From an uncultured archaeon (lineage in GTDB: Archaea > Asgardarchaeota > Lokiarchaeia > Sigyniarchaeales > SOKP01): 64,000 bases of DNA. The stretch lies in the NCBI GenBank assembly GCA_964486045.1, contig CAZALK010000010.1, positions 32,001-96,000 of the forward strand. The letters are read 5' to 3'. The notes below the pieces were generated by a model, which was given only the letters and a program-made list of their open reading frames with translations, did no database searches and was not told the origin of the DNA. The position numbers and the translations under genes were made by a program. Of this stretch, positions 30,612 to 49,062 are shown in pieces; position 1 is the stretch's first letter; every line of letters begins with the position of its first letter.

Positions 30612-31943
30612 TTAATTCTTAACAAAATCGATGATTTTTCCAGCGATTTTAAAATTTGGGAGTTTAAAATTTGCAAAGCCTTTTTCTGCTGCAAATTTAG
30701 GCATTGCATATAAAATGCATGTCTCTTCTGACTCTGCGATTGTTTTACCACCTAACTTTTGGATTACACCTAATCCTTCAACTCCATCAGCACCCATCCC
30801 TGTCAATATTATCCCTAAGGTTCTTTTTCTAAACATCCGAGCTGCTGAAAAGAAAAGGATATCAATTGAAGGCATGCAATAATTAACAGGAGTACCTACA
30901 TATATTTTAATAACTGGTTTTTTATTTTTTTCTACAATTTCCATATGATTATCACCGGGGGCAATATAACATACTCCAGCTTGGAGAGCTTCCCCGTTAA
31001 CTGCAACCTTAACTCTCATTTTGCATTCTATTCTCAAATTATCAACGAATGCATCTGTAAAGTGTGAAGAAAGATGTTGAACTACTAAAACTGGTGCACC
31101 TAAATTTCGGGGTAATTCTTTTAGTATTGTAGTTATAGTCCTAGGACCGCCTACACTTGCCCCAATAACCACAATGTTGGTTGATAGAATCACATCTCTA
31201 ACAGGAGTTAGATTTGGAACATAAGCGGGTGCTTTCTTTACGTATTTTGTTGAAATTTGTTTTTTCATTAAAGGAATTGAAGCTTTACTTTTTGTTACAG
31301 TGACTTTTCCTTTTTGTAATGTTTTTGCAATGGCTTCTTTCTTAACAATTTGTTGAGTTTCCTTTGTAGCTATTTTAGTTTTACCAATATCAATTATTTG
31401 AGTTTTTTGATCTTTCTCGATTTCTTGAACTGGTTGTAATCGATTTAGATATTGTCCAAAATTAAAAATGTCATTGATTATATCTTGTCGAATTGAAGTC
31501 CCCTTTTTTATCGGTTCACCATCTTTTCGAAATATCCTTTTGATTTGTGATTGGGAAGCTAAAAGAACTTTAGCAAGTAATTCCTCCTTGAATAACGGTA
31601 ATTTTTTGGCGCCCATTCCCCCTGGTTTTATGATATAGTCGAATGCACCCATCAATAATGCTTGTATAGAAGAATCTAGGTTTTTAGGACTTATAGCTGA
31701 AAGTATAACAGTGGGAGTGGGATGATCCTCCATTATTAATTTAAATGCCTCTAGTCCATTCATTTTTGGCATTACTAAATCTAATACTAACACATCTGGG
31801 CTGTATTTCCCAACAAAATCAACGGCCTCTTCTCCATTTTTAGCAAATTCTAAAACATTAATCAATTCATGGCCTCTAAGAATATCGGCTATACTTTTTC
31901 TTAAATACGCAGAATCGTCGGCAACTAGAACATCAATCGACAC
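30612..31943 (-). CDS. cheB: Chemotaxis response-regulator methylesterase CheB (second copy, long linker)
   Basis: REC domain (DD...DLVMP...KP) plus esterase triad GASVGG / VQH / TGMGADG. Confidence 0.9.
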   Translation of the reverse strand: MSIDVLVADDSAYLRKSIADILRGHELINVLEFAKNGEEAVDFVGKYSPDVLVLDLVMPKMNGLEAFKLIMEDHPTPTVILSAISPKNLDSSIQALLMGAFDYIIKPGGMGAKKLPLFKEELLAKVLLASQSQIKRIFRKDGEPIKKGTSIRQDIINDIFNFGQYLNRLQPVQEIEKDQKTQIIDIGKTKIATKETQQIVKKEAIAKTLQKGKVTVTKSKASIPLMKKQISTKYVKKAPAYVPNLTPVRDVILSTNIVVIGASVGGPRTITTILKELPRNLGAPVLVVQHLSSHFTDAFVDNLRIECKMRVKVAVNGEALQAGVCYIAPGDNHMEIVEKNKKPVIKIYVGTPVNYCMPSIDILFFSAARMFRKRTLGIILTGMGADGVEGLGVIQKLGGKTIAESEETCILYAMPKFAAEKGFANFKLPNFKIAGKIIDFVKN

Positions 31944-32168
31944 AAAAATCTCCTTTAAAATTTGATATAGTAATTCTTATAAATAGTCGTGTAAAGAAAT
32001 TTATACTTATTTAAATGTAAAAATCAACATTTAAGAATTAGGTTCCTTAATTATAAAAATAAAAACCGAATTTATATTGTTTAAAGGTCCTAAAGAATTG
32101 AGAAATATTTAAATAAAAAAGTTTAGAGGTAGTTTGTTTTGATCTGTTTTGTCCTTTTCTCTTTTTAC

Positions 32169-32510
32169 CTAACCAATTTGAGTCTTATAATGTTCCACGC
32201 AAAACCATGTCTTAGATTTTTTATGATAAGTCATATCTCTATTATGTTTACTACATATTGGGCACTTTACAATAGAGGCTCTTAGAGGACGTTCAATATC
32301 CCACCATTTATCAGAAAAACGCTTTAGTATTTCAATTTTTTCCTCAGATGGGTGAATATATTTTCCATTTTTATCATGCTTTAAGTTATGTTCTTGGTCA
32401 CTAATTTCCATCTGTCTTTCTGCGCATTCCTTCAAAATAATTAATCATAAATTGTTCCTAGCTCTCTGTAATTTTGGATCTTTGATCCGTATAGTTCTAC
32501 CGTTTTTCAT
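32169..32510 (-). pseudogene. Small Zn-ribbon protein with an internal TGA (32447-32445)
   Basis: ATG at 32510 gives MKNGRTIRIKDPKLQRARNNL*LIILKECAERQ, in frame with the track ORF; CPIC...WFCVEH at the C-terminus. Confidence 0.55.
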
Positions 32511-32688
32511 TTATATTCATGTTTATTTTAGTGTGTCTCAAATTTAAATCTTTGTAGAGCGACAGATTTCTAATACCTTAAATACTAAAAATTTGCCTTA
32601 AATAGTAAATATCGGCAATGCTGAATACTCTACCTAATTTATATCCTCTATAATCTGATAGTTCTGCTAATGAATTAAGCAGATCACC

Positions 32689-32838
32689 GTGCATTATACA
32701 GAAGACGCCCCTCCTATTGAAACAACAGATACTATCATCCCTAATGATTCAATCTTCGGTTATTCAACTATAGTAATTGTTATTATACTGTTCTTCAGTA
32801 TTTCAATTAGATTATTCAAAGACAGAAAAAAAATATAA
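32689..32838 (+). pseudogene. Orphan C-terminal fragment of a surface protein with a Loki-CTERM-like sorting signal
   Basis: VHYTEDAPPIETTDTIIPNDSIFGYSTIVIVIILFFSISIRLFKDRKKI*: Pro/Thr linker, I-x-GY, TM helix, basic end; upstream frame is closed. Confidence 0.5.
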
Positions 32839-32954
32839 AATTAATATCATCGTTTTTTTATTTTGATCTTGAGTAATAAAAATTTTTCTAAATGGCATTT
32901 TACTAATCTTTCACTCCTATTTTTCTTTTATAAAGATTCATATTTTTATGGTGT

Positions 32955-33209
32955 ATGGTAGAATCGATTCATCTAAAAGAAATGGAAGACCTTGGTCTTA
33001 GCACTACGATAGAAGGATATTATGTTGAAGAAGATCAAAAATCAGTATCTATTAGGTTACCAAATAGTATGTCTTTTTGGGTACCTAAACGGTTTATTGA
33101 TACTCAATTTTTTAGGGAGACTGATCTCAAGCAAGAGTTCCTTATTGACAATTGGATACTGCGAAAGATCGGACTTAGGTTAGATAAGATCAAAAAAATA
33201 GATCGTTAA
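32955..33209 (+). CDS. Small hypothetical protein (beta-rich)
   Basis: 84 aa ORF with ATG start and protein-like composition ('FWVPKRFI...IDNWILRKIG'). Confidence 0.6.
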   Translation: MVESIHLKEMEDLGLSTTIEGYYVEEDQKSVSIRLPNSMSFWVPKRFIDTQFFRETDLKQEFLIDNWILRKIGLRLDKIKKIDR

Positions 33210-33441
33210 AATCTTTTTGGGCTTCTATATCTCGTATGAATTGCTGAAGTGGAGAATCATCCTCAATATAATGAAGAACATCTGAGTGTATCCAAGTAGT
33301 TAAAGGTTTGGCTTCTCTGTACTTTGCCTGTTCATCAGGGCTTAGTGTTAAGTACTCTGAATATTCCTTACACCATCGTATAACTTTATTACTTTTTGCG
33401 CGAAAGTAGTTTCTTTTCTTATGGAGGTTTTGGTAAAGCAA
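33190..33441 (-). pseudogene. Probable gene fragment
   Basis: 83-aa protein-like frame with a weak start, in a zone of decayed ORFs. Confidence 0.35.
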
Positions 33442-33966
33442 ATTCAGCTGACATCAAAAGCACATCATAATTAAAATTTTCAAATTGCATTATTAGTTCA
33501 TTACCTAATGCACTTAGAATTAATATTCAATGGGAGAAGAAAGACGGGAACATCATTCTATATTAATTCCCCCATGTTCTTCCTTAATTTTGATATGAAA
33601 AGGGATTTTATCATTTTGTTTCTGTTCCACGCTTTGAAAAAAGAAATTTGGCATTAGTACAGGAAGGAAAAGAAAAAGGAAGTTAAGTTTTGTTCTTAAT
33701 AGATTCAATTTGAGATATTAAAGGCCACTGATTATAATTTAATTCTTTCTTATCGTATCTATTATTAAATTAGGAATTTATAAAGGGAAATCATTAATAA
33801 ATCCTCTGTCCCTTCACAAATATTGATGATTATTTCCTTCTTAAAGTCATGATAATACAAAACAAGACCAAAGGAAAAAGAACATTTACACCTGAACAAA
33901 AAGAGTAATATAAGACCAAGAAAGAAGCACAAAGTAGTGTTAAGAAATTTATACTTTATTTAATCG

Positions 33967-34926
33967 TTAAAAAAGATTTGAAATTAAATATGAAAACACC
34001 TCATCAATTCCTTCTCCTGTGAGTGCTGATGTTTCAAAAAAAGGGAAATCATATTCCTCTGCTAAATCTTGAGCTCTGGATCTAATTTCTTCCCGATCCA
34101 CTGCTATATCGATCTTATTTCCAACGAGAACAATTGGAATTGATTTATCTTTAATGAATTGATGAGTTTCTTTAATCCAATCAATTATATTATTAAAGGT
34201 CTCTATTCTAGAATAATCGAATAAAATTAGAACCGCATTTGAATAGTTATAATAATATTTTCTAACTTTAGCAAAGCTTTTTATTCCTCCTAGATCGAGG
34301 AGATATAATAATAGATTATAATTCTTTGAAATTTGTAATTTTTTTTCTATTATTGAAATTCCGATTGTAGGTTTGTAAGCTTCATTGTAAGTTCCCATAC
34401 AATACATTCGTACTAAAGCACTTTTCCCTGCTGATTCAGGTCCCACAACAACAATTTTATTTTGATTATTTTTAGTATACAGTGTCCTATTTTTAGGTTT
34501 AAATATTAATTGCATATTTTCGTTTAATTTTGGAATTTTTGATATAGACTCTTGATTATTTAGAATCAGTGATATTTTTTCTGCTGTTAAATAGGCATAT
34601 GGAATAATTTGATCAATATTTGAATAAGGATCTCCTATTAATACAAAAATTGCGGGAGTTACTTTTTTTAACTCCACAAAAAATAGTTGAAATTCATTGG
34701 TACTGAATGTTCCACATCCAAATGAAGTTTCAGCATATTGTCTAATTCTATTTATTGTTTGATCCAAAATTGACATAATAGCTCCTATCATTTCCTCATC
34801 AAATCCTCTGATTGACTGTTTAGCAATAATTAACCCATCTAAATCTAAAATAATGGTTGCTAATAATCCTTGTGTTTCATAAATTAAATCTGAAAGTATA
34901 TCTTCTAGTACTCCTAATTTTGACAT
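33967..34926 (-). CDS. Roadblock domain fused to a Rab/Ras-like small GTPase
   Basis: N-terminal roadblock ('GLLATIILDLDGLIIA...MIGAIM'); G1 GPESAGKS, G2 PTIG, G3 DLGG, G4 NKID, G5 ETSA. Confidence 0.9.
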   Translation of the reverse strand: MSKLGVLEDILSDLIYETQGLLATIILDLDGLIIAKQSIRGFDEEMIGAIMSILDQTINRIRQYAETSFGCGTFSTNEFQLFFVELKKVTPAIFVLIGDPYSNIDQIIPYAYLTAEKISLILNNQESISKIPKLNENMQLIFKPKNRTLYTKNNQNKIVVVGPESAGKSALVRMYCMGTYNEAYKPTIGISIIEKKLQISKNYNLLLYLLDLGGIKSFAKVRKYYYNYSNAVLILFDYSRIETFNNIIDWIKETHQFIKDKSIPIVLVGNKIDIAVDREEIRSRAQDLAEEYDFPFFETSALTGEGIDEVFSYLISNLF

Positions 34927-34932
34927 TAGTTT

Positions 34933-35598
34933 CTATAGATCCATATTATATTTGATGTTTAAAATTTTGAATAAATTCTTTAAAATATTCAGACTAGGAA
35001 TGAAGCACATTACACAATCTATTTTTATCTCTTTCAGTGCCAAGTTCGTTTTGATTAAAACCAAATAATCTGATATTTGAGAATATTTTGCAATAATTCT
35101 ATTTAGCATTGCATTTAATGTGTCAAGTGCTACTGTAGGAACATTAGGGACTAATTTAATTGACATTAAATCAGCTAAACCATTTGCATAATGCCCAGAT
35201 AATATGTTACCTATTTCAGTTATGATGCTTAACGAAAGCTCGTCAAGATCCTCACTAGTTCTTACGTTTTCAACAGAAAGATTAGAATCTTCATTCAGAT
35301 AATTAACTAAATTAAAGATTGATTCTTTTGTAAATATTTGAATAATTGATAAATCTGATGTAAGGTGGATTTCAGAATAGATCCCAAATACCTCAACTTT
35401 TGGGCTTTCAAATAATTCTTCTACCTTCCAGAAGGGAATAATATCAGCTGAAGTTAGTGAAACCTCTATTTCATAATTAAATAATTTTGAAAAAGCTGTA
35501 ATTGCATGCCCAGACCCGATGTTTCCAATTTCCTTTAACATGTCTAATTGTTCTGGAGTTAGGTGGAATTCTTCTGGTATCTTAAAATCGTTATTCAT
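34933..35598 (-). CDS. cheC: CheY-P phosphatase CheC
   Basis: Two E-x-x-N active sites: KEIGNIGSGHA and TEIGNILSGHY. Confidence 0.9.
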   Translation of the reverse strand: MNNDFKIPEEFHLTPEQLDMLKEIGNIGSGHAITAFSKLFNYEIEVSLTSADIIPFWKVEELFESPKVEVFGIYSEIHLTSDLSIIQIFTKESIFNLVNYLNEDSNLSVENVRTSEDLDELSLSIITEIGNILSGHYANGLADLMSIKLVPNVPTVALDTLNAMLNRIIAKYSQISDYLVLIKTNLALKEIKIDCVMCFIPSLNILKNLFKILNIKYNMDL

Positions 35599-35624: not shown

Positions 35625-36173
35625 TTAATAAAATTTTTTAAAATCTGTTTCTCCAGTTGATTTTACATACAAGGAAAAATCGTTTGTGTCAAAAATCACG
35701 TTTCTCCCCTTTGAACCCCCAGTCTCTTCTTTGATAATTTGTATTTTTAATATATCTAATTCTTCCTTAACAGAAGCGATATTATTAAATCCCACATCAT
35801 TATTTTCTAAATCAAATATTTTTGAGCCTCCTATAATAAATGCCCTAATATTCTCTCTTACAGCACCATGATTTAGTAGTTCTTCCATTAATAATTTTAC
35901 AGAAAAGCTTGCGTATTTATGCGGATATTGGATTATTTTAGTTGGACTTGCTTTGGGTAATAAAATATGAGACATTGCGCTTAATTTGTTTATTTCGTCA
36001 AATAAAACCAGGGCAATGCACGAGCCCAATCCATAAATTGAAATAGTTGGTTTACGATTTGAAAGAAAGTTTTTGCTGTTAGAGAGTGCATAATGCCCAA
36101 TTAGTACAGATATATTTCCATTTCTATCCGTTTCCTTGATTTGATCAATTGGCTCTATAATACTCACCTTCAA
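35625..36173 (-). CDS. cheD: Chemoreceptor glutamine deamidase CheD
   Basis: 'GLGSCIALVLFD...SHILLP', 'KYA', 'GGS', 'ETGGSKGR'. Confidence 0.92.
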   Translation of the reverse strand: MKVSIIEPIDQIKETDRNGNISVLIGHYALSNSKNFLSNRKPTISIYGLGSCIALVLFDEINKLSAMSHILLPKASPTKIIQYPHKYASFSVKLLMEELLNHGAVRENIRAFIIGGSKIFDLENNDVGFNNIASVKEELDILKIQIIKEETGGSKGRNVIFDTNDFSLYVKSTGETDFKKFY

Positions 36174-36199: not shown

Positions 36200-37318
36200 T
36201 TATATAAATTTTGTTGCAAATTTAATCATATAATCATGAACTTTATATACTGGAAGTATTAGATTTGCTGCACCTAGCTTTGCTGCTGCTCTTGGCATCC
36301 CATAAATAACACATGTCTCCTCAGATTCAGCGATAGTTTTGCCACCATTATTTTTAATTGCTTTTAATCCCCTTGCACCATCATCTCCCAACCCTGTTAA
36401 TAGAATTCCCATTACATTATTTTTGTATATTTCTGCAGCTGAAAAAAATAAAACATCCACAGAAGGTTTGCAAAAATTGACTGGTTTATCATCAGATATT
36501 CGAATGTGAGGTCTATTTTTTATAGTTATAATCTTCGTGTGTTTTCCACCAGGACTCAAGTAAACATTACCGGGTAATATTCTCTCCCCATCGTCTGGGA
36601 TTTTTACGTTTATTTCACAAACTTGATCCAGAGATTTACTAAGTTGTTTCATAAAAAATGCATCAAGATGTTGAACGATCAAGATTGGGCTTGGAAAATC
36701 CTGAGGAATCTCTTTTAAAATAAATTTTAAAGTTCTTGGTCCACCGGTGCTGGTGCCTATTACTATTAAATTTGCTTCTAATATAAGTTGAGGAGCTTTT
36801 GGAAGATGTAACGGTTTGGGTTTTATTGGTGTTCTTATTTTTCTCTTTACTTCTAATTCATTAATAGATTGTTTGCTAATTGATTTTCTTATTAGATTAT
36901 TTCGTTTTTCATAACTTTTTTTTATTTTTGCTGCGTATAAAACACTTGAAACTAATTTTTCTTGAACCTTTGGGAATTCAGTTTTCCATAGACCTTTGGG
37001 TTTTATTATAAAATCTAATGCTCCTAAAAGTAACGCTTGAACAGAATTATCTAAGTTTTCTGGATTAAAAACTGAAAAAATTATAGTTGGTATTGGATAA
37101 TGTTCTGAAAGAAATTTTAATACTGTTAACCCGTCAACCTCAGGCATTATTAAATCTAATATTAATACATCAGGATTCAACTCTTCAATTTTTTCAATTG
37201 CCTCCCTCCCGTTTCGAGCAGTATCAACAGCAGAAATTTCATTGTGTGAAATTAGCATTTCAGAGATTAATTTTCTTTGATATGCTGAATCTTCTGCAAG
37301 TAATACTCTAACAGACAT
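36200..37318 (-). CDS. cheB: Chemotaxis methylesterase CheB
   Basis: REC domain plus GTSTGGP / VQH / TGLGDDG, 'PSVDVLF', 'YGMP'. Confidence 0.93.
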   Translation of the reverse strand: MSVRVLLAEDSAYQRKLISEMLISHNEISAVDTARNGREAIEKIEELNPDVLILDLIMPEVDGLTVLKFLSEHYPIPTIIFSVFNPENLDNSVQALLLGALDFIIKPKGLWKTEFPKVQEKLVSSVLYAAKIKKSYEKRNNLIRKSISKQSINELEVKRKIRTPIKPKPLHLPKAPQLILEANLIVIGTSTGGPRTLKFILKEIPQDFPSPILIVQHLDAFFMKQLSKSLDQVCEINVKIPDDGERILPGNVYLSPGGKHTKIITIKNRPHIRISDDKPVNFCKPSVDVLFFSAAEIYKNNVMGILLTGLGDDGARGLKAIKNNGGKTIAESEETCVIYGMPRAAAKLGAANLILPVYKVHDYMIKFATKFI

Positions 37319-37326
37319 GATAATGT

Positions 37327-38358
37327 TTAATTGACCTTCATATATATTCGATTTAATGAGTCTACTAACTTTAAATTACTCTGGGAGCTAAAAATTGTTT
37401 CTGTTTTACCTATGATTAATAAGCCCCCTGCATTTAAACGATTTTCAATGATTTTTAAGAACTTATTTCTTGCAACTCTATTAATGTATATTAGGAGATA
37501 TCGACAAAAAATGATATCATAAACCTGTGATGTTTGATGGCCTTTCATTACATCTTCCCCAATAAACTTGATATACTTTTTTATTTTTTCATTTATAGTG
37601 TATGTAAATCCGAATCCCACTTTTTTCTTCAAAAAGTAATTTTTTTCAAAATACTTTGAAACATTTTTTGTTGATTCTTCGTTATACACTCCGATATTTG
37701 CTCTTTTAATAGCGTTTTCATCAATATCAGAAGCTATAATTCTGAATTTAGGAAATTGTGGAATTTGTTTTTTAAAATTATCTAAAATTATTGCAATAGA
37801 ATATGGTTCTTCACCGTTTGCACATGGACAAGACCAAATATTAATAGTCTCCTTAAATCTTTGGAAATTCTTCAGCTTTTTATATAAAATACTTTTTGGA
37901 ACGATTTTCTTTGCTGATAATTTATTTTTTAACCTGTGTTCTAAGTCCTTCTTTCTATTGGAAATCTTTTCAATTTTATTTGGTTTCTTTTCACTTTTTT
38001 TACGATATTTTCTTTCTGGATTGGGATGTAAATTACTAATTACATCTTCTCTTTTGTAATTTCCACTTTTTAATATAATGTCTTCCAATTGGTCATAAAC
38101 TTCCCAATTTCTAAAAAAAGTAGAATAATTGATATTAAAACTAATTAAAAATTTATTTATTTCTTTAGGATTTTCTACTAAATATTTGTAATACGATTCA
38201 AAGTTAGAACAATTAACACGAATCATTCGAGATTTAATTCTTTTCTCGATATGTTTTCTTTGATAATATCCTAGTTTTAACCCAGTTGTTTTATTCAAAA
38301 ATCGAATTAATAAATCATAAAAATCCTCATCAAATTTAATATCCTCAATTAGTATCAC
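37327..38358 (-). CDS. cheR: Chemotaxis methyltransferase CheR (with a Lys-rich insertion)
   Basis: 'INYSTFFRN', 'IWSCPCANGEEPYSIA', 'ASDID', 'YDIIFCRYLLIY', 'GKTE'. Confidence 0.92.
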   Translation of the reverse strand: MILIEDIKFDEDFYDLLIRFLNKTTGLKLGYYQRKHIEKRIKSRMIRVNCSNFESYYKYLVENPKEINKFLISFNINYSTFFRNWEVYDQLEDIILKSGNYKREDVISNLHPNPERKYRKKSEKKPNKIEKISNRKKDLEHRLKNKLSAKKIVPKSILYKKLKNFQRFKETINIWSCPCANGEEPYSIAIILDNFKKQIPQFPKFRIIASDIDENAIKRANIGVYNEESTKNVSKYFEKNYFLKKKVGFGFTYTINEKIKKYIKFIGEDVMKGHQTSQVYDIIFCRYLLIYINRVARNKFLKIIENRLNAGGLLIIGKTETIFSSQSNLKLVDSLNRIYMKVN

Positions 38359-38368
38359 TTGTGAACAC

Positions 38369-38923
38369 TTATTTTTCTATTAATTTTTCAATTTCGGTAA
38401 ATCGTTCACTGATACGTTCAAATGAATACTTAATATGCATTTGGATTTCTTTAACTTCGGCAAAAAGCTTTCTTATATGAGATCTATCGGACTTTGATAA
38501 AACAAACTGATTTTTTGAATATATTTTATGAATTGGCTCATGTATAGATGGAGAAGAGACAAATGGCTCTAAAACCTCATCCCTACTAAATTCTTGTCTA
38601 GATTGCCCAGGAAAACTTAGATCAGAAACATCCTCTTTAATTTCTTTAAGTATACTAACGAATTCAGCAGGTTCAATGCCTTGTTTTATAACTTCATATT
38701 TGAAATTATAAAATTTCTTCTTAGTTTTAAGTTTTCCAGCCCAATTCGCTGCCATGTACCTATGAAACAACCGGGAGTGACTACCTGCCCAGATCCAAAT
38801 TAGTTTTAGTCCTTTATCTACAATTAAATAAACTTCAGAGGGATTGAACAACTTCTCTGGTCTGAGCTTGATTGTTTCACCGTCGACCTTATAAACATAA
38901 TCGTAATAGCTACTTTCTGTCAT
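38369..38923 (-). CDS. Single gelsolin-domain protein with a C-terminal helical/coiled-coil extension
   Basis: 'LFNPSEVYLIVD...IWIWAGSHS......A...A.....VIKQGIEPAEF' matches the gelsolin repeat pattern (L.s.dvfilD....iyvW.G..s...a...a.....v.qG.Ep.eF). Confidence 0.8.
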   Translation of the reverse strand: MTESSYYDYVYKVDGETIKLRPEKLFNPSEVYLIVDKGLKLIWIWAGSHSRLFHRYMAANWAGKLKTKKKFYNFKYEVIKQGIEPAEFVSILKEIKEDVSDLSFPGQSRQEFSRDEVLEPFVSSPSIHEPIHKIYSKNQFVLSKSDRSHIRKLFAEVKEIQMHIKYSFERISERFTEIEKLIEK

Positions 38924-39034: not shown

Positions 39035-41035
39035 CTACGAATAGAACCTTAATAGAGCATCTAATAATTCCTGGAGTGTTTCTAAGTTTGGAATAAATAA
39101 GAAAGTTCCTGTAATTTTAAAATCTGTTACAATCACGCTCGTATCTATAACTAGTGATAATTTCTTCAATAGCCCAATTTCTTCTTTTAGAATCCTAAAT
39201 AACTGTTGTCCAGTGTCTACAGACATGTCAGGAGGTTCTGTCATCAATTTTAAGCCAAGTAAATTACCAATTGCACTTACATAATGACTTCCAAGAATAT
39301 GTCCTAGTTCAGAGAGTGCACTTTTATAGAGGTCAGGAAAATCAGAAGCCTTGTTAATTTTCTTTCTTAAATCTATCTGCCTTTTACTAGTATCATCAAC
39401 TATTATTGAAGTAATGTCAACTGCATCTTTCAAATTAAATATTGTTAACACTGTAGCTCTTGCTCTTCCAACAACATTACTCCATGCAACTAAGAGTTTT
39501 TCATCTTTTCTGCTAATTGAATTTGCATAATCATCTAATTCCACCATCTGAACGGAAGGAATGTTGATATCAACTCTCTTGTTAATCATCTGAGCTAAGG
39601 CATTTGCAGCATTCCCTGCGCCTATATTACCAACTTCTTGAAGGGCATCTCTTTGAACTTCCGAGAGTTCAATTTTTGATAACTCCAGAAGTTCAGGAGC
39701 TTTTTTAGTTTTTGCTGGTGTTTCTGAAATTTCATGTCTAATTTCAAGTTTTTTAAAGATAATTGAGAGAGTTTCAATATCTGGAATAAAGAAGAACATA
39801 CCTTTTAGTTTTAAGTCAGATACTTTTATAGATGTCTGAATGATAATGAAAAAATCTGCAATCGCTTCAAATTCTTTTGAAAGAAATTCCCCTATTTCCC
39901 CAGCAGTACTCATAGTAAATTCAGGGACGTCAATCATTAGCTTTGTGCCAAGCAGATCAGCTAAGGCTGAAGCATAATGACCTGCCATAATGTTTCCCAT
40001 TTCTGTTATCGTGGATATAGCATAATCATCAAGATCCTTTTTAGTTTTAACCTTATTAGGTACAATCTTTGAATCTGGACCTGCTAAATCTGATATTAGA
40101 TGCATTAGGGGCTTCATTTCAAAGATATTCAGTATAGTTGCTGGAGAGGGCTTTTCTATATGACAAAAAATTCCACATACTTTATCATTTTTACCACCGA
40201 ATTGGCTTGGGAGTTCATCTAATGGAATTATGCCTACATCAGTGAGAGTTACGTCAATCTTCTTTTTTACTAATCTAGATAAAGCAGTGACTGCATTTCC
40301 TGTCCCAATATTCCCTAATTCTTTCAAAGTGTCTTGTTGTTCTGCTGATAAAACTACTAGCTTTTCTTTTTTAACTTTTTTAACTTTTTTGGTGGTTGTT
40401 GCTTTTGGTAGTTTTTGTTTCTTTTTTGGTGCTTGAACAATTTGTGGAATTACAAGCGTAGAATCAATATCTGGTCTATCAATTATCTTCGGTTGCACTT
40501 TAGGACGTTCTAGGCTTGTTGGCTTTATATCGATTTTTTTCTCAATTTTTCGACCCATTGATTTGATATATGGCTGAATTAAAGCATCTAAATCTAATAA
40601 TATCAAAGATTCATCCTCGAATACTCCGGTTAATTTTATTAGTTTAAAATCTATATTAGTCTTAACAATAGTTCCTTGTTTTTTGAAGATTGCAAGGGGT
40701 ATATCTCTAACACCGATTACTACATCTACTAACACTGCTATTTTAAGATTTCTGTATTCTAGCAATAAAATCCTTGAAAACTCATCGATGCCATAATCTA
40801 TATCATTCCCATATATATTATGTCTTAATGATATGATTGAGTAGATCTCCCCTCTTATACTGATAATGCCCACGATTGATTTATCTGTTAATGGTACAGA
40901 AACAATATCATCTCCGGGTACATAAATTTCCTTAATGTTTGAAACTTCGAGAAGATATTTTTCATCAAGCACTTGTATTATTACCACATTTATGTTTTCT
41001 CCAAATTCTATTTCTTCAGATTTACTTTTAAACAT
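39035..41035 (-). CDS. CheW-CheC-CheC fusion protein
   Basis: N-terminal CheW ('VPLTDKSIVGIISIRGEIYSII...AVLVDVV'), Lys/Pro linker, two CheC modules (KELGN/TEMGN; QEVGN/SELGH). Confidence 0.88.
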   Translation of the reverse strand: MFKSKSEEIEFGENINVVIIQVLDEKYLLEVSNIKEIYVPGDDIVSVPLTDKSIVGIISIRGEIYSIISLRHNIYGNDIDYGIDEFSRILLLEYRNLKIAVLVDVVIGVRDIPLAIFKKQGTIVKTNIDFKLIKLTGVFEDESLILLDLDALIQPYIKSMGRKIEKKIDIKPTSLERPKVQPKIIDRPDIDSTLVIPQIVQAPKKKQKLPKATTTKKVKKVKKEKLVVLSAEQQDTLKELGNIGTGNAVTALSRLVKKKIDVTLTDVGIIPLDELPSQFGGKNDKVCGIFCHIEKPSPATILNIFEMKPLMHLISDLAGPDSKIVPNKVKTKKDLDDYAISTITEMGNIMAGHYASALADLLGTKLMIDVPEFTMSTAGEIGEFLSKEFEAIADFFIIIQTSIKVSDLKLKGMFFFIPDIETLSIIFKKLEIRHEISETPAKTKKAPELLELSKIELSEVQRDALQEVGNIGAGNAANALAQMINKRVDINIPSVQMVELDDYANSISRKDEKLLVAWSNVVGRARATVLTIFNLKDAVDITSIIVDDTSKRQIDLRKKINKASDFPDLYKSALSELGHILGSHYVSAIGNLLGLKLMTEPPDMSVDTGQQLFRILKEEIGLLKKLSLVIDTSVIVTDFKITGTFLFIPNLETLQELLDALLRFYS

Positions 41036-41079: not shown

Positions 41080-41940
41080 TTATTTTATCATAATTCCTTT
41101 CCAGATTAATTCTACTTCAGGATCATCCTCATTCACTTCAGTGTAAAAGTCCAATTGCTTAAAAATCGAAATTTGGCCACCACTTGTGTGTTTATAAACG
41201 TAATTTAGTAAGTCATCAATACTAATGAAATTAAATCCTGCTACTTTTAATTCTGAATCATTCACAATTAACAAGTCTTCTCGTTTGAAAAAACGATTTT
41301 CTTCAATAAATTCTACCATCAATGTAGGATCTACCTCTTTACTAATTACCTTAATTGGTGTGTCAAACGGTATATTTCGAAACGACTTACTGGTTGCAAA
41401 AATAACCTTATCTGGAAGTAGATTTTCTTGCTTAGCATAATTGGTAATTTCAGTTAATACTTTCTTGTAATTACTTAATTCTAAGATATCGTGACAAGAA
41501 ACCAACAACACTTTATTTTCACTAGTTTCAATGATAAAATCAAGAAACCGATCTGAACTAGAATTTATATTAATTTTTATTGACTCTACCTTCAAATCTT
41601 CCGTATATTTAAGATTTTGATAGAATCTCCACTTTACTGCTTTTTTATCATTTTCTTCCCTGCTGATAAAAACTTGAAAAAGTTTTTTCAATTGTTCAAG
41701 GTTTAATTTCGATAAATCTGCTATTTTATCAACATCAGTACCTATTGGAACATAATCCTTACTAGTAGTTGTCTTTGACTTTGATTTTGTGTTTTTAGTT
41801 TTTTTGGTTTTTTTAGATTCAACATCATCCAAATAAATTTGTAATTCGCTTTTTGTGAATTTTGGGAGAATTTGTTCAATAAGGTATAATAAATATTCTT
41901 TCGATTTATCATCCATTGTTTCATAAAACTGTAAATTCAT
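41080..41940 (-). CDS. Hypothetical protein within the che operon
   Basis: 286 aa, co-oriented with 26-44 bp gaps; the central 'LDFIIETSENKVLLVSC' segment weakly suggests a restriction-endonuclease-like fold. Confidence 0.65.
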   Translation of the reverse strand: MNLQFYETMDDKSKEYLLYLIEQILPKFTKSELQIYLDDVESKKTKKTKNTKSKSKTTTSKDYVPIGTDVDKIADLSKLNLEQLKKLFQVFISREENDKKAVKWRFYQNLKYTEDLKVESIKININSSSDRFLDFIIETSENKVLLVSCHDILELSNYKKVLTEITNYAKQENLLPDKVIFATSKSFRNIPFDTPIKVISKEVDPTLMVEFIEENRFFKREDLLIVNDSELKVAGFNFISIDDLLNYVYKHTSGGQISIFKQLDFYTEVNEDDPEVELIWKGIMIK

Positions 41941-41966: not shown

Positions 41967-43982
41967 TTACCCAACGAAAAATGATTCCAATTCTGATTGC
42001 TTAACATCGCTACTACTTCCTATATTTTTTAAATAGTACATAACCTCTCTTTCTTGAAACGGTAATAAAGTATCAAATGTGAAAGAAATTTTCTGTTCTC
42101 TATTATTTTTTGATTTGCTAACTTTATAATCTAAGTTTGAAGATATAAGCTCAAAAGAATCTGGAAAAGTATCTGTAACATTGACATCACTTAATTTTAT
42201 ATTAGACCCATTTTTGGCTACAATGTAAATAGCAAATTCATTGCTACTTCTCCCTGGGAAGATCTCTTTTCCTACCATCAATTTACGCCGCTTGTGAGAT
42301 ATTTTAATAGCAGATTGATCCATCTTTGAGAGATCATCCATTATAATGAAAAATTCATTCTTATCTCCTGATCCTACATATTTTGGATAGTATGAGTGTA
42401 CTTGTAATGGAAAATTATACGCTTTTTTATAATCTGGTGTAATAGCCTTAAGAGGGTATTTTATTTCCAAGAAATCTTCTACTTCAATCACAGAATCTAA
42501 ACGATAATTCTTTAGATTGATACTTAACTCAAGAGTATGTTCATGTGAAGGATCATTATCATCAGGACTAACTTTTATTTCAAGATCGTCAACTTCTAAT
42601 GCGCCAGATGATCTATATAATTTATACTCGGAAATATCCCTAGGGGGTAAAAAGTCTTCTGGAATTGTTTCTAAAACCAGAAGTCCCTTAATTGGAATCG
42701 TTCCTTCATTGTTAATAATTATCCTAGAATTTATTTTCGTTTCTTGAAATGATTTGATTTCTCCTTCTGCTAATTTTTTCTTAATTAAAACGCGAGTTAA
42801 CTTAAATGTAGTCTCATCGTATTTTGAAATTAGCGTTGAATTACTCTCAGTTTTGTAATCTACGGAATATTCAACTTTTCTAGTAAAATTGGGTTCTTTC
42901 TCATCAATGATATCAAAATATTCTGATGTAAATTTCCCCCGAGGGAGTACAACTTTCTCATTAGCTTCACTAAAATCATATCCTAGTATTTTCTTCGATT
43001 TTGTTTTATCATAGATTAATATCGACTTCAATTTCATCTTGAAATCACTATGGTTTTCAAATATAAGTGAACACTGCCAATGATTAGGAGCATAATTTTT
43101 CTCAGATTTCTTGATTGCATGCATAGCATGAGAGTATCCTGAGAATTTATTTATTTTTACTCCAGATATGACTTTTTCTGATAGGTTAAAAGTTAATTCA
43201 TATTTACCAGTTTTTATGTTTTCTTTCTTTTTGGGAAATATTTTAGCGATAAACACTATTTCTACTTTTTCCATAGAGTTTAAGTTATTTATGGAGCATT
43301 CAATTGAATTTTGAGATATCTTAAAATCGCTATTTGAGTTACTTTTAAATTCCAAGTCATAAAAACCCTGAGAAAAATCTTTCTTTAGTTTAATTTTCTC
43401 TAGAGATGAATCTGATATATTTTCGATTGAAATCGAAAATTTTATGACATTCTCCCTTCCTATCATTAATAGATAATTATTAGCTTTACCATTGCTAGTA
43501 AGATATTCACTATCAACCGAAGAACTGCTTTTAAGATCTTCAACTTTATTTTCAATATTTTCCTGTAATTTTACCAAATCTGGTATTTCCTCCGAGTTGA
43601 CAATTTCATATTTTAAAACTTTATTTGAACTCGGTTCAAAAATCCCTAAACTGATGTTGTTTTCATCACTTTGATTATTAAATTGAGATCCAGAGAATTG
43701 TAAGTTTGCATCCCATATCCGATCCTTAATTGAATTATTGAATATTGAAATATTTCCATTACCGAGTGCTGATTTTCTACTTCCATTATTATCATAGTCA
43801 AATTCTAAAAATTCCTCATTTAATATTAAAATATCTGAAAACGCACCTGTGTAGCTTGATTCAATTTTCTTCTCTCGATATGTTTTTTCGACAAGTTTTC
43901 CTCCTTCTCTTATAGGGATACCAAGAAAATTTGGGCTCATTTTCGTTTTTAATTCTTCATAATCAACTTTTTTAAATCCCAT
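41967..43982 (-). CDS. Large cytoplasmic beta-sandwich repeat protein (DUF11/Ig-like) within the che operon
   Basis: Repeated 'I.I.N.....I....V.DT.P..F' strands; no signal peptide or TM helix. Confidence 0.65.
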   Translation of the reverse strand: MGFKKVDYEELKTKMSPNFLGIPIREGGKLVEKTYREKKIESSYTGAFSDILILNEEFLEFDYDNNGSRKSALGNGNISIFNNSIKDRIWDANLQFSGSQFNNQSDENNISLGIFEPSSNKVLKYEIVNSEEIPDLVKLQENIENKVEDLKSSSSVDSEYLTSNGKANNYLLMIGRENVIKFSISIENISDSSLEKIKLKKDFSQGFYDLEFKSNSNSDFKISQNSIECSINNLNSMEKVEIVFIAKIFPKKKENIKTGKYELTFNLSEKVISGVKINKFSGYSHAMHAIKKSEKNYAPNHWQCSLIFENHSDFKMKLKSILIYDKTKSKKILGYDFSEANEKVVLPRGKFTSEYFDIIDEKEPNFTRKVEYSVDYKTESNSTLISKYDETTFKLTRVLIKKKLAEGEIKSFQETKINSRIIINNEGTIPIKGLLVLETIPEDFLPPRDISEYKLYRSSGALEVDDLEIKVSPDDNDPSHEHTLELSINLKNYRLDSVIEVEDFLEIKYPLKAITPDYKKAYNFPLQVHSYYPKYVGSGDKNEFFIIMDDLSKMDQSAIKISHKRRKLMVGKEIFPGRSSNEFAIYIVAKNGSNIKLSDVNVTDTFPDSFELISSNLDYKVSKSKNNREQKISFTFDTLLPFQEREVMYYLKNIGSSSDVKQSELESFFVG

Positions 43983-44035: not shown

Positions 44036-46114
44036 TTAATTAGTTATTTGAGATACTATATTTTTATTGAACTTCGAAGAAATTATACTTAGCACATCAA
44101 TTATTAGACAAATAGCCCCTTCACCTGTTATTGTAGAACCTAAAATATCACGAGAATCTGAGTAATTAGATTTAAATGGTTTTACAACAATGTCAAGCTG
44201 CTGTAGTTGTTTGTCAGCTATAAATACTGCCGAGTTTGTTTCATCTCTTTGGCACCAAACAGCTATTTTTTTATGAGCGTTTGTTGTACTTTTCTTTACC
44301 ATCTCTAAATGCTCCTCTAAATAAATTATTGGTATTTTTTTACTACCAATTCTGTAATATTGTTCTCCATCTTCATGTTCAACCTGATTTGGGTTGAAGA
44401 AGTATATTTGTTTTATGTTTTCAGTTGGAATAGCGAATAAGTCATTAGAAATTTGCATTAGTTGTGCTCTTAGAATTGCTCGTGTAAATGGAACAATTAG
44501 TGTAAATCTTGTTCCAATATTTTTTTCAGAGTAAATTGTAAAATCTCCACCAAGTTCTCCTATTTTCTCAGCCACTATAGCCATTCCCATACCTCTTCCG
44601 GAAAGGATATCGGCCTCAGAGAGTGTTGAAAATCCAGGCATTAAAATGAATTTATGAAGCTCTTCATTATCTATCTCTTTTACCTCGTTCTCATCGTAGT
44701 AACCTTTCTCTACAACTTTCTTTCTAATTTTATCGTAATTAATCCCAGCACCATCATCTTGTACTTCAATATAAATTGAGCCTGCTCGTCTATATGTATT
44801 GATTCTCAAAGTGGCAACGTCATTTTTACCCATTTTCCGCCTTTCCTTCGGTAACTCTATTCCATGATAAATAGCATTCCTTATAAGCTGAACTAAAGGA
44901 GAATTTAGGTCTTCTAAAATTTTCCTGTCAATTTCGACATTTGTTCCTTCTAAAATCAACTTAAGTTTTTTACCAGTTTCATTTGCTAAATCGCGAACTA
45001 ATCTCTTATATTTTCTAAATGTTGACTCAACTCTGACTAATTTTAATCTGAATAGAATTTCTTGAATATCGAGAAATGGTTTATCCATTTTATCAAATAA
45101 TCGAGAGATAGTTCTATCTTGTTTTTCCTTTAAAAGTTGAGAGATATGATTCTTCATTACTATTAGTTCTCCAAAATAATTCATAAGCTCTTCTAAGTAT
45201 TCAACATTAACTTTTACACTAGAAATTCTAATAGTTTCTCCCGAAAAATCATCTACTATTTTAGAAACCCTTTCAACCTCTTCATCAAAAGTCTCTTCTT
45301 CCATATCAGTTTCATATCTTGATTCTATACTTACATCCTCAGGTTTCTCCCTTTCCCATTGTTCTTTAAGTTCGATAATTATTTTTTCAAACTCTTCAGG
45401 TTTCATTGGTTTTATGACTTTGCTTTCAATCTCTAGGATCTCAGCGATCGTGTGAGATATTTCGGTTTTATTCTTTGTAGTTATGAAGTATATTTCAAAC
45501 TCATTCTTCAAAGTTGCTTTTTCTAAATCTTCAGGAGCAGGATGAGTCCAGCATATTTTGCCATTTTCATTTAGTGCTCGAAATATTATAAATAACCTAA
45601 CTTTTTTGAAGACACATGTTTCTTCAAGCCTAATATAAATTTTAAATGGTTTGTTCTGCTTTTTTTGTAGAATTTTAGAGATTTCTTCTTGTGATAACGC
45701 TTGGATAAATGTTATATCGTAATCACTTTCAAAACTTTCAAAGCTATCTTTGATATCTTCCACAAATTTTGCGTCTAAGTCAGTTAAATCTCCAGTTTTT
45801 ACTCTTTTTATTACCATTCTTAACACATCAAGTGATTCAAAGAGCATATCAACGAAATCACTTTTCTTATTAAGACTGGCTTTTTTTTCTTTTGCATTTT
45901 CTAAAAAGGATTCAAAATGATGGCAAAATTTTGATAAGTTATCAAACCCTGCCATTGCAGTTAATCCTTTTAACGTGTGAAAAGTAAAAAAGAGTCCTTG
46001 AACTGGTTTTAGATCATCTGGATTTTCCTCTATATTTAGAATTTCATCTTCTGTTTTCTGAATCAGATCCTCTGCTTCACTAACAAATAGTTTCATATCG
46101 TCTTTGGATGACAC
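44036..46114 (-). CDS. cheA: Chemotaxis histidine kinase CheA
   Basis: Hpt 'FHTLKG', P2, dimerisation domain, HATPase (RNAIYHGIE, DDGAGI, PGFST, GRGMGM) and C-terminal CheW-like P5. Confidence 0.95.
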   Translation of the reverse strand: MSSKDDMKLFVSEAEDLIQKTEDEILNIEENPDDLKPVQGLFFTFHTLKGLTAMAGFDNLSKFCHHFESFLENAKEKKASLNKKSDFVDMLFESLDVLRMVIKRVKTGDLTDLDAKFVEDIKDSFESFESDYDITFIQALSQEEISKILQKKQNKPFKIYIRLEETCVFKKVRLFIIFRALNENGKICWTHPAPEDLEKATLKNEFEIYFITTKNKTEISHTIAEILEIESKVIKPMKPEEFEKIIIELKEQWEREKPEDVSIESRYETDMEEETFDEEVERVSKIVDDFSGETIRISSVKVNVEYLEELMNYFGELIVMKNHISQLLKEKQDRTISRLFDKMDKPFLDIQEILFRLKLVRVESTFRKYKRLVRDLANETGKKLKLILEGTNVEIDRKILEDLNSPLVQLIRNAIYHGIELPKERRKMGKNDVATLRINTYRRAGSIYIEVQDDGAGINYDKIRKKVVEKGYYDENEVKEIDNEELHKFILMPGFSTLSEADILSGRGMGMAIVAEKIGELGGDFTIYSEKNIGTRFTLIVPFTRAILRAQLMQISNDLFAIPTENIKQIYFFNPNQVEHEDGEQYYRIGSKKIPIIYLEEHLEMVKKSTTNAHKKIAVWCQRDETNSAVFIADKQLQQLDIVVKPFKSNYSDSRDILGSTITGEGAICLIIDVLSIISSKFNKNIVSQITN

Positions 46115-46138: not shown

Positions 46139-46537
46139 TTAGGCTTTTTTATACTTTAGTATACGATCCATAACCTCTAAGATTTGTTCAGTTTTGAATG
46201 GTTTTTGGATAAAATCTTTTGCCCCTTTTTTAGCAGCTTCTAGAACTAGAGCTTCCTGTCCTAGTGCTGATACTACAACGATTAATGCCTTTGAGTTTAT
46301 TTTTAGAATCTCCTCTGTAGCTTCAATTCCACCCTTTTCTGGCATTACTAAGTCCATAGTGACCAAATCTGGGCTTAATTTTTTATATAGGGAGATTGCT
46401 TCTACTCCGTTGGAGGCTTCACCGATTACTTCAATTTGTTCGATCTTGCTAATGATGTTTTTTAGCATATTTCGGGTAAATTGCGCGTCATCGACGATAA
46501 GTACCCTTTTCTTCCCATTCTTTTCATTCTTTGACAT
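46139..46537 (-). CDS. cheY: Response regulator CheY
   Basis: Single REC domain: VDD, MDLVMP, SALGQ, KPF (Firmicute/archaeal CheY type). Confidence 0.93.
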   Translation of the reverse strand: MSKNEKNGKKRVLIVDDAQFTRNMLKNIISKIEQIEVIGEASNGVEAISLYKKLSPDLVTMDLVMPEKGGIEATEEILKINSKALIVVVSALGQEALVLEAAKKGAKDFIQKPFKTEQILEVMDRILKYKKA

Positions 46538-46566: not shown

Positions 46567-47088
46567 TTATGTTAATGATGATAAATCTTGTTGAATCCTA
46601 AATTTTTCTACCTCGCTAAAAATCTTAGATAAGTCAAGCACCACCCTTGGTCTATCCTCAAAATTAATTATACCTTTGATAAATTCAATAGCAACACTTG
46701 TTTGAAAAATAGGACTCAACCCAATAATCTCCTCAGGAAGGATGTGATCAATACTGACTATTTGATCCACATAAAAACCTATGAGATCATTTTCTACTTT
46801 TAAAATTATTATAAACTTCTTTGTCTCACTTGAATCTTGTTCAAAAGAGGACCGCTTCTCATGGTATAAGAGGTATTTATCTAAGTCTAATTTTCTTCTT
46901 AAGTTAATTACATGAATAATATCTCCCCTGTAATTGTATATACCATCTATATAGTCGATGCTTTTCGGTAATTTCCTGATTTGTCCTGCCTGAATTATTT
47001 CCTTAACATCCAGGAGGTCAATAACAAATTCTTCCCACCCTATTTTAAAAGTAAGGATGGAAATTTGATCTATTTCTTTTTGAGCCAT
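46567..47088 (-). CDS. cheW: Coupling protein CheW
   Basis: 'FKIGWEEFVIDLLDVKEII...LPKSIDYIDGIYNYRGDII.VINLR...GFYVD'. Confidence 0.92.
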   Translation of the reverse strand: MAQKEIDQISILTFKIGWEEFVIDLLDVKEIIQAGQIRKLPKSIDYIDGIYNYRGDIIHVINLRRKLDLDKYLLYHEKRSSFEQDSSETKKFIIILKVENDLIGFYVDQIVSIDHILPEEIIGLSPIFQTSVAIEFIKGIINFEDRPRVVLDLSKIFSEVEKFRIQQDLSSLT

Positions 47089-47108: not shown

Positions 47109-47921
47109 TTATATTATAAAATATTGGTTAATGTTTTTTTCAAATTCGTTAAAGGGAGTTACATCCCCATTAAAATTTTTTAAATAGTCTTTATATTGAT
47201 ATAAAAATTCATCTGCAATGAGGTACATATACCTTTGAAGCAGTGAATTCATATTGTCTACCAAAAATGCAAAAATTACATTACTTTTTGATATAACATA
47301 GAATTGTTGATTCCCAAAATTAATTTCCTTGAGCTTAGCACCAGTTTCCTCTCCTATAATTGTATTGGAAAAGGATAAAAGAGCTGAAATAAATCCACCA
47401 ATGTGAACCTCGTGGTCAGCAATATTGCTACGAGCCTTATTTATTTTTGAAATAAAAGGACTTCCCGCAGAACCAATTACGAAAATAGCAATAATTCCCT
47501 CACTTCGAGGGATTTGAACCGTATTCTCAAATACTTCTATTATCTCTGTGATTGAAGCATTCGAAACTACTTTTTGATTTATTTTTTTTGATAAGAGGTA
47601 TAGACTTCCAAAACTTACAGACTGGTCCTTTTCCTCCATATAAATAATAACTGAAATATCATCCTCACTATTTTTAAAATATTGGATGAAAATTGTAAAA
47701 TCATCTAAAGGAATGATTGAATTTCCCTGCTTTTTGTTAATTATCTCTTTTTTATATAATTCAATAATATTCTGGATAAGCGGGACACCTATTCCTTTTT
47801 GAAATCCAATGTCAAATTTAGCACTAGAGCTAATGTCTGAAATCATTAAAATGCCATAACCTAGCATCTGTAATTTTTCTGAGCCATTGTTACTATTTTG
47901 AGCATTGTTCATAGCTATCAT
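47109..47921 (-). CDS. Longin-like domain protein (first gene of the che operon)
   Basis: C-half 'AIFVIGSAGSPF...IGGFISALLSFS...LKEINFGNQQF...F...Y...L.NFNGDVTPF' is the typical Asgard longin/sigma-like pattern. Confidence 0.75.
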   Translation of the reverse strand: MIAMNNAQNSNNGSEKLQMLGYGILMISDISSSAKFDIGFQKGIGVPLIQNIIELYKKEIINKKQGNSIIPLDDFTIFIQYFKNSEDDISVIIYMEEKDQSVSFGSLYLLSKKINQKVVSNASITEIIEVFENTVQIPRSEGIIAIFVIGSAGSPFISKINKARSNIADHEVHIGGFISALLSFSNTIIGEETGAKLKEINFGNQQFYVISKSNVIFAFLVDNMNSLLQRYMYLIADEFLYQYKDYLKNFNGDVTPFNEFEKNINQYFII

Positions 47922-48375
47922 ATTTCTTACATGCTTTTTTTTTACAAAATCTAATTTTATGTTTAATGACTATGAGTTTTTTTACCTTTTTTCAATACCC
48001 ATAAAACTTTTGGTAAAAAATCATTAAGATCTTTAAGTTTTATTGTATTTTTATATATTTGAACTAAAAATCTTATATTAGAAAATATATATAAAGTTTT
48101 TGTTATAAAAAGATGTTATTCTAATGGAAGTAACAATTGTTTTTTATCATTTTAATGTTGTTCTTATTTTATTTTGATCATCGATCTTCTAGAATTTCAC
48201 TTTTTCTAGATGCATCAACGATTTTGTACTAAAAGAGCCTTCTACCCATTTATATTTGCTAATCCTCCCTTACTTATAACAAAAGTTTAAATTTCTAAAA
48301 AAAATTACATATTAAAGGTATACAAATTTATAATAAAGCACACAAAAATAAATTTGAACACATACATTTAAGACC

Positions 48376-49062
48376 ATTACAAGAAGTGAATCAGATATAA
48401 CAACAAATAATGTAAATATAGCAAAAGAAAAGTTTTTCCAAGAAATCCAAATCGTATGCCCCAAATGTAAAAGTAATAAGGAGCTGAAAATACCTGTCAA
48501 GGTAATAAATCAAAGTAAACAACTTACAACAATCTCAATACCGTCAGGATTATGTTGTGAGCATAGTTTTCAATCGTTTGTTGATAAGAATTTTATTGTT
48601 AGGGGCTATCAAAATGTAGACTTTGAGTTTTCTCATATGGAATTATATGAAAGTAGTGATTCATCTTTAGAGGATAAAGATGATCACGGAGATAAAGCAT
48701 TGGATATTTCTTCCTTACCTATTTTTCAAGGAATACTCCAAATATTAAGAGATTGTGTAGATGATAAAGAGATATTGGGGAGTGGGATATTTAGTATTGA
48801 AGGGAAAGTTTTATACTCATCTCTCCCACAAACTACGCTATTTAATACTATCCGAGAATTTGAAGTGAGGAGTGAAAGGAACTTGGTGAGTGTAAAACAA
48901 ATGTATCTTGAATTAGAGAATAATGAAAAATTTATTTCTAAATTTATGCAAATTAATGGGAGGAAATTCAATTTGGTCTTAATGTTTTCTTTTAGGGTGA
49001 AGTTTGGCATGGGGAATTTGCATTTAAGGGATTTATTGAAGAAAATCGCGAAACTAAATTAA
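48376..49062 (+). CDS. Zn-binding domain plus roadblock/profilin-like domain protein (probable ATT/ATA start)
   Basis: Frame is open upstream of the track ATG (48637) back to a TGA at 48355 and encodes CPKC...CCEHSFQSFVDKNFIVRGYQNVDFE. The C-domain 'ILGSGIFSIEGKVLYSSLP' is roadblock-like. Confidence 0.7.
   Translation: MTRSESDITTNNVNIAKEKFFQEIQIVCPKCKSNKELKIPVKVINQSKQLTTISIPSGLCCEHSFQSFVDKNFIVRGYQNVDFEFSHMELYESSDSSLEDKDDHGDKALDISSLPIFQGILQILRDCVDDKEILGSGIFSIEGKVLYSSLPQTTLFNTIREFEVRSERNLVSVKQMYLELENNEKFISKFMQINGRKFNLVLMFSFRVKFGMGNLHLRDLLKKIAKLN

Follow-up and report, generated by a model that had tools for sequence, protein, structure and literature searches.

Asgard archaea encode small GTPases by the dozen, hardly any of which has been assigned to a pathway, and operons of these archaea rarely pair such a GTPase with its regulators (PMC10933270). 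Closest in architecture to the protein considered here are the roadblock-GTPase fusions of Prometheoarchaeum MK-D1, in which a roadblock or longin domain is joined to a small GTPase and which, like it, lack a C-terminal prenylation extension (Tran et al. 2024, PMC10933270). A related combination operates in Myxococcus, where a roadblock protein, MglB, and a small GTPase, MglA, act under the chemosensory pathway Frz with an output that is not of flagellum type (PMC3199381, PMC4316618). MglB gives no catalytic residue: it positions Arg53 and Gln82 of MglA itself, and the replacement Q82A abolishes hydrolysis even in the presence of this GAP (PMC3199381). Known longin GAPs donate an Arg finger and not Gln (PMC12290439), and GTPases devoid of the catalytic Gln can hydrolyse GTP by means of a residue from elsewhere or potassium (PMC2848588). 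Rag GTPases (RagA-D, Gtr1/2; LokiRag 8yl2 and 9m28) also combine G and roadblock domains in one chain, with dimerisation through the roadblock expected.

Many Lokiarchaeia possess a full Che system and no archaellum, and it is the steering of actin-based crawling that is at issue in these organisms (PMC9834061, PMC13716822). L. ossiferum resembles the host of our locus in having cheA/B/C/D/R/W/Y together with many receptors and putative receptor arrays (PMC9834061). Here we analyse a fusion gene, designated RbG, that is embedded in a che cluster within a 64,000-nucleotide stretch of Lokiarchaeia DNA (the window). Through its clade, one such GTPase can be assigned to a particular genomic setting and to a few possible partners, and a precise prediction about its biochemistry follows.

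RbG and the che cluster of the window

The gene and its recognizable parts are as follows:

33967..34926, minus strand: RbG, roadblock–Rab-like GTPase fusion of 319 aa with an ATG start
34555..34926, minus strand: N-terminal domain of RbG, residues 1-124, assigned to roadblock from Robl_LC7 matches in the family and secondary-structure order
33973..34464, minus strand: Rab-like G domain, residues 155-318 (Pfam Ras, E 8e-36; fold match to Rab3C)
34420..34443, minus strand: P-loop G1, GPESAGKS, with Glu164 at the position of Ras Gly12 (family alignment)
34282..34296, minus strand: G3 box, DLGGI, with Ile215 at the position of Ras Gln61 (alignment of clade and outgroup)

A preliminary description of this DNA presented the product as a roadblock domain fused to a Rab-like G domain with all G boxes, a G3 reading DLGGI and no C-terminal Cys, and all of this was confirmed. 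The Ras domain occupies residues 157-317 (Pfam, E 8e-36), and the other boxes are Thr187 (G2), NKID (G4) and SAL (G5). The G domain belongs to the Ras superfamily and to its Rab-like Asgard group, not to Arf, Rag or MglA: its top sequence matches are Rab39B and a Thorarchaeota Rab, and its fold neighbours are Rab3C (Z 23.6, rmsd 1.9 A over 167 residues), LokiRagO (Z 17.7) and MglA (Z 16.3). The family Gtr1_RagA matched RbG only at E 0.012, below the Pfam cut-off.

The N-terminal half of RbG itself matches Robl_LC7 weakly (residues 11-54, E 0.004, 19.6 bits, below the curated cut-off of 23 bits), and N-terminal halves of 20 out of 24 aligned family members match the same family, with a best E of 5e-7. 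The AlphaFold model (pLDDT 83.9, pTM 0.83) consists of two domains joined by a linker, and its residues 3-122 are predicted to form helix-strand-strand-helix-strand-strand-strand-helix, which is the roadblock order, followed by the G domain. As judged from Pfam matches across the family and the modelled topology, the N-terminal half is a roadblock/LC7 domain. A sequence search of the PDB with this half returned weak roadblock matches only (E 0.13 and 0.22); a match to a designed repeat was rejected as spurious. In fold searches with the whole model the match lists were filled by the G domain.

The chain stops at the last G-domain helix, ending NLF, and has neither the prenylation motif nor the hypervariable tail of eukaryotic Rabs. 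A lone Cys within the last five residues was found in only 3 of the 28 che-linked relatives considered below, and a C-terminal Cys motif in none of the 52 small GTPases of the host genome, so its absence from RbG is not special. The host genome encodes seven full-length roadblock-GTPase fusions, RbG included; the six paralogues match RbG with E 1e-31 or better and are unlinked to che. The fusion architecture itself is ordinary, as is the presence of Che, and neither is new.

The neighbours of RbG, listed from the head of the cluster, are:

47109..47921, minus strand: tandem double-longin protein, cluster head (model pLDDT 81)
46567..47088, minus strand: cheW
46139..46537, minus strand: cheY
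44036..46114, minus strand: cheA (sequence and synteny)
41967..43982, minus strand: conserved Ig-like (DUF11) protein, 671 aa, conserved after cheA (Pfam DUF11, E 1.5e-8)
41080..41940, minus strand: conserved orphan, 286 aa, with weak PD-(D/E)xK-like features that are a lead only
39035..41035, minus strand: CheW-CheC-CheC fusion (Pfam)
38369..38923, minus strand: gelsolin-like single domain with a C-terminal helix (profile matches to 7c2f, E 4e-7, and other gelsolins)
37327..38358, minus strand: cheR (Pfam CheR, E 2e-42)
36200..37318, minus strand: cheB, first copy, receiver and methylesterase, homologous to the second copy
35625..36173, minus strand: cheD (Pfam CheD, E 3e-22)
34933..35598, minus strand: cheC, with its stop 6 bp before RbG (Pfam CheC, E 2e-19)
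32017..33964, no strand: insertion of 1,948 bp that is specific to the host genome and parts RbG from cheB2, flanked by a direct repeat of 32 nt
30612..31943, minus strand: cheB2, second cheB, last cluster gene in relatives, a long-linker methylesterase (Pfam)

The conserved order runs double longin, cheW, cheY, cheA, DUF11 protein, 286-aa orphan, cheW-cheC-cheC, gelsolin-like gene, cheR, cheB, cheD, cheC, RbG, cheB2. RbG begins 6 bp past the cheC stop, exactly as first reported, but the accompanying statement that it closes the operon holds in the host genome only: relatives run cheC-RbG-cheB2, with RbG second to last and cheB2 starting 61-74 bp after it in 15 of 16 cases (131 bp in one). The two copies of the direct repeat that flanks the insertion (32 nt at 31985-32016 and 33933-33964) are 84% identical, and with the insertion removed the gap between RbG and cheB2 is 75 bp. 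Part of the inserted DNA (~33490-33770) recurs at 75-91% in at least ten other places of the host genome. It resembles a small mobile element, and its three short ORFs belong to no Pfam family. An EF-2 paralogue at 28323-30512 converges on cheB2, and a third cheB of the host genome resides on contig C5 (237430-238137).

Two partners had been suggested for RbG. That at 47109..47921 proved to be a real double longin, whose residues 141-270 fit the longin of Vamp7 (Z 12.2) and residues 13-136 a Loki longin (8yqg, Z 11.0), while the other, 48376..49062, is a weak candidate, being encoded on the opposite strand and surviving che deletions. In the latter ORF (48358-49062), which is divergent from the che cluster and has a Cys-rich N-terminal part, the first ATG occurs at 48637, whereas orthologues of ~220 aa match from residue 11-21, so its start is probably non-standard. 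No homology between RbG and the double longin was seen when their profiles were compared, and predicted complexes of RbG with the double longin and with CheY, which scored 0.02 in runs made without control pairs, were counted neither for nor against an interaction. The best solved relative of the gelsolin-like protein (38369..38923) is the Asgard chain 7c2f. An atlas search with the 286-aa orphan gave nuclease-like leads only, all below 0.9. CheY is 88-94% identical across the genus against 55-73% for other cluster genes, which suggests many constrained contacts. The DUF11 protein and the 286-aa orphan follow cheA also in genomes with a distant CheA type (G053, G038 and G040), and these two orphans are the best candidates for an adaptor replacing CheF.

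A clade of fusions without the switch-II Gln

Phylogenetic analysis (IQ-TREE, LG+G4) included 57 roadblock-GTPase fusions, sampled by sequence and not by context. A clade of 35 proteins that includes RbG was separated with support 100/100 from 22 outgroup fusions. The catalytic Gln of switch II is present in none of the 35 and in all 22 outgroup proteins, counts in which the rows are kin. Che-linked are 28 of the 35, with every deep branch among them, and 0 of the 22; each of these 28 genes has a che gene, or the cluster's gelsolin-like gene, on the same strand at a distance of no more than 600 bp. The remaining seven, nested within the clade, stem from a duplication and are 430-453 aa long, with the C-terminus extended. 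The link of RbG with che has a single evolutionary origin, and the loss of Gln maps to the same branch, so that catalytic rewiring coincides with che adjacency.

At the position of Gln61 che-linked members have Leu (18), Ile (4, RbG among them) or other residues, and all seven long forms have Leu; in five of these G3 has decayed further, to Ser. Ras Gly12 is replaced by Glu in 21 of 28 che-linked proteins, and Gly is retained in 18 of 22 outgroup fusions. Switch II gained basic residues (K220 in 28/28 and K or R at 216 in 28/28), and G162, G167, K168, T187, D211, G214, N270, K271, D273 and S300 are invariant in all 28. Among the 52 small GTPases of the host genome the Gln61 position is filled by Gln in 36, Glu in 13 and Arg in two, RbG being the sole one with a hydrophobic residue, which fits the descriptive class of HAS-GTPases. 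Hydrophobic residues at this position are also known in Rnd and RhoH, GTPase-deficient members of the Ras family in which position 12 is changed as well. RbG is 62% identical to its orthologues, with 63-65% for cheC, cheB and the gelsolin-like gene, and is therefore under similar constraint. The long duplicate (L104:10001-12470; also L091, L092, L100-L103 and L122-L126) usually precedes two conserved genes of ~190 and ~163 aa without Pfam match, and the three make up a separate module that is found also in genomes without cheA.

These residues bear on the way in which RbG was originally interpreted, namely as a single-chain counterpart of MglB-MglA, a polarity switch that regulates itself with the fused roadblock as GAP. 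The roadblock and G domains are indeed fused and pack together in the model (pTM 0.83), and MglB is a roadblock GAP (PMC3199381). However, the G domain is closer to Rab3C than to MglA, the Gln needed by MglB is absent in all members of the clade, and the residue preceding the switch-I Thr is Pro in 28/28 che-linked members and never Arg. The same fusion is found in the six unlinked paralogues of the host. MglA and MglB, moreover, must occupy opposite poles, and a fusion prevents such placement. Taken together, this makes the one-chain switch very improbable. Since MglB only positions Gln of its partner, a fused roadblock acting in the same manner has no means of restoring a site that lacks Gln, and rescue by a longin partner, which had also been proposed, is not expected by the known mechanism, in which longin GAPs donate Arg. 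Hydrolysis by RbG may still be possible, as other Gln-less GTPases use alternative routes.

Distribution of the clade and strength of its link with Che

Distribution was estimated in 138 genomes of the class (Lokiarchaeia) with completeness of at least 80%, 38 of which have this CheA type. The short form (~320 aa) was found in 28 of these 38 and in none of the other 100. All 28 adjoin a che gene or a gene of the che cluster, so a che-linked clade exists, as the preliminary description had supposed, and none of its short forms is unlinked. The long duplicate occurs in nine genomes, outside the che cluster and in six cases without cheA. A gelsolin-like orthologue is present in 34 of the 38 genomes and 0 of 100 others, so this gene marks che more tightly than RbG does and is the better candidate for an actin link. 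No clade member was detected outside Lokiarchaeia in a draw of 301 genomes from the phylum, made with 7 candidates per genome and a strict threshold that leaves distant orthologues possible; in this draw the clade was confined to the host's own family. In the order's other sampled families it was missing except for one genome (family f4), and L. ossiferum (G055) has no clade member.

Ten genomes have this CheA type without the short form. RbG was cleanly lost on continuous DNA in four che-positive genomes (G024, G003, G069 and G060), while the assemblies of three others (G008, G096 and G084) are fragmentary. The gene cheR was lost about as often. RbG is thus dispensable and lineage-restricted within Lokiarchaeia. 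The proposal that it is a self-regulated polarity switch downstream of CheY loses ground here, as RbG disappeared from several genomes in which CheA, CheY, longin and gelsolin are all retained.

Wherever the short form is kept, it stays with che genes. Five gene orders were registered (cheC-RbG-cheB2, cheY2-cheB-RbG-cheB2, cheR-RbG, gelsolin-RbG, and cheC-RbG in another family), including those produced by rearrangements that parted RbG from the EF-2 paralogue and purN. In two loci (L119 and L120; G068:C18 and G078:C7) RbG-cheB2 is separated from the remaining che cluster, on the same contig, by a V-type ATPase operon; a joint move of RbG and cheB2 as a pair was considered and rejected in favour of insertion of this operon in G068 and G078. 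The adjacency RbG-cheB2 is the commonest one, kept despite V-ATPase insertion (L096-L098) and in another family (L105), and this would be expected if RbG regulated or localised CheB2 or CheC/CheD and thereby set receptor methylation by the GTP or nutrient state. We consider such a partnership in adaptation rather improbable, however, as cheB2 is kept without RbG in G024, G003 and G069, and RbG is parted from cheB2 in G120, G121, G142, G146 and G059.

Joint losses were scored on a tree of the EF-2 paralogue of the genus. The che genes were lost at least ten independent times, each time together with RbG, and the test of independent pairs gave 9 concordant pairs out of 10 (p 0.004). Deletion scars, in which the cheB2 tail is fused near the longin or the cheW head, or the flanks are joined, mark these losses as local block deletions at one site beside the EF-2 paralogue. 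A block deletion takes an interior gene whatever its role, therefore co-loss says little on function, and for the same reason the pairs test was not taken as proof of it. Thus RbG might be a hitch-hiker, that is a paralogue which landed once in the cluster of the lineages' ancestor and is co-transcribed with it while doing an unrelated job, for instance in membrane or nutrient signalling. Small GTPases are so dense that ~0.17 of them (about one in six) is expected per cluster-sized stretch, and synteny is sticky here, as the unrelated, equally long-lived housekeeping neighbours (EF-2 paralogue and purN) also adjoin the cluster across genera. Moreover, the long duplicate persists without cheA, and with one origin the link counts as one evolutionary event. 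We nevertheless hold this explanation somewhat unlikely: the short form was never rescued in 100 genomes without this CheA, although the flanking longin sometimes survives, RbG follows che genes through rearrangements that separate EF-2 and purN, and the catalytic rewiring coincides with the che link. These three observations are the real support that remains after co-loss is set aside, and RbG probably works with the Che system.

Neither archaellin nor CheF was found in the host genome (G000, 99% complete), which has ten receptor-domain matches, or in any genome with the short form, and positive controls worked in both searches. Among the genomes searched, G055 alone had archaellin above the cut-off and G051 alone had CheF, and neither of these two carries the clade. 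The archaellin-family matches of G055 (L. ossiferum) that exceed the Pfam cut-off are at C1:5215287-5217284 and C1:859980-865961, with no CheF match there; the main text of the 2022 paper on this organism does not mention archaella (PMC9834061).

The lack of archaellum and CheF in short-form genomes leaves room for RbG as the output switch itself: CheY-P, via the double longin or an orphan, would serve as a GEF or residue-donating GAP, and RbG would control the gelsolin-like protein and Lokiactin, thus steering the crawling. Longin dimers are platforms for GEFs or GAPs (PMC10933270, PMC12290439), and two longin domains in tandem are encoded in the cluster. The che-restricted gelsolin-like gene stands immediately before RbG in two genomes, the crawling of Asgard cells depends on Lokiactin (PMC13716822), and Che control of a small GTPase has a precedent in Frz-MglA (PMC4316618). 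Yet loss of RbG while CheA, CheY, longin and gelsolin stay is unexpected for an obligatory output, the cultured crawler L. ossiferum has no clade member, and the DUF11 and 286-aa orphans, more widely conserved beside cheA, are better adaptor candidates. An output switch is therefore unlikely.

Possible role of RbG and comparison with known systems

Roadblock domains generally dimerise, and substitutions at positions 12 and 61 of Ras block hydrolysis. Tentatively, and with some reserve, we favour RbG as a slow, mostly GTP-loaded accessory scaffold of the archaellum-free Che system in one lineage of Lokiarchaeia. Its intact guanine-nucleotide and Mg-binding residues suggest that it binds GTP, which, by analogy with Ras Q61L or G12-substituted mutants, it would hydrolyse very slowly and so remain mostly GTP-loaded. 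Dimerised through its roadblock domain, again by analogy, RbG may serve as a localisation scaffold or a slow state marker at a cell site, placing there either Che signalling parts or the eukaryote-like proteins of the cluster (double longin, gelsolin-like). It would then tune the pathway and not be its fast obligatory CheY-P output. As RbG is dispensable, such an accessory part suits it better than that of an obligatory output. Against the scaffold speaks the long duplicate, which persists in six genomes without cheA, so that fusions lacking Gln can have a use where there is no Che.

As a candidate, RbG could connect bacterial-style sensing to cell machinery of eukaryote-like type. A bolder version is a long shot: a Che pathway without archaellum would signal via a dedicated, Gln-less RbG, regulated by the double longin and acting on the gelsolin-like protein as its effector, and would so steer actin-based movement. 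If true, it would mean that a prokaryotic receptor array is wired to a Ras-family switch and actin. Being lineage-restricted, dispensable and absent from L. ossiferum, RbG may also have arisen locally and say little about the origin of eukaryotes.

A literature search, outside which most subscription papers fell, found no description of the RbG clade or its che link. In L. ossiferum the CheA is of the distant type (25-30% identity), no RbG, gelsolin-like or DUF11 gene occurs in the che stretches read, and the main text of the paper contains no such gene neighbourhoods (PMC9834061). Accessory NTPases of bacterial che operons, ParC/ParP and PpfA-type, position arrays and offer a functional analogy to the scaffold favoured here, but they are ParA/MinD ATPases, a family unrelated to that of RbG (PMC11407121, PMC5706961). 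HAS-GTPases share with RbG the hydrophobic residue in place of the catalytic Gln and differ from it in family and context (PMC2848588). In comparison with the Rags, RbG has the reversed domain order, with the roadblock at the N-terminus, and its G domain resembles Rabs more closely (Z 23.6 to Rab3C, 17.7 to LokiRagO). Rags, besides, keep the switch-II Gln. Unlike MglA and MglB, RbG is fused, Rab-like and without both catalytic residues that MglB positions, and its gene is encoded beside chemosensory partners, whereas mglA is not. Finally, GTPase genes of MK-D1 are generally not in operons with regulators, and the paper describing them makes no mention of chemotaxis (PMC10933270), whereas the RbG clade is Gln-less and resides in a che cluster. 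What appears to be new here, on the basis of the papers searched, is a Gln-less, che-linked lineage among the known roadblock-GTPase fusions of Asgard archaea.
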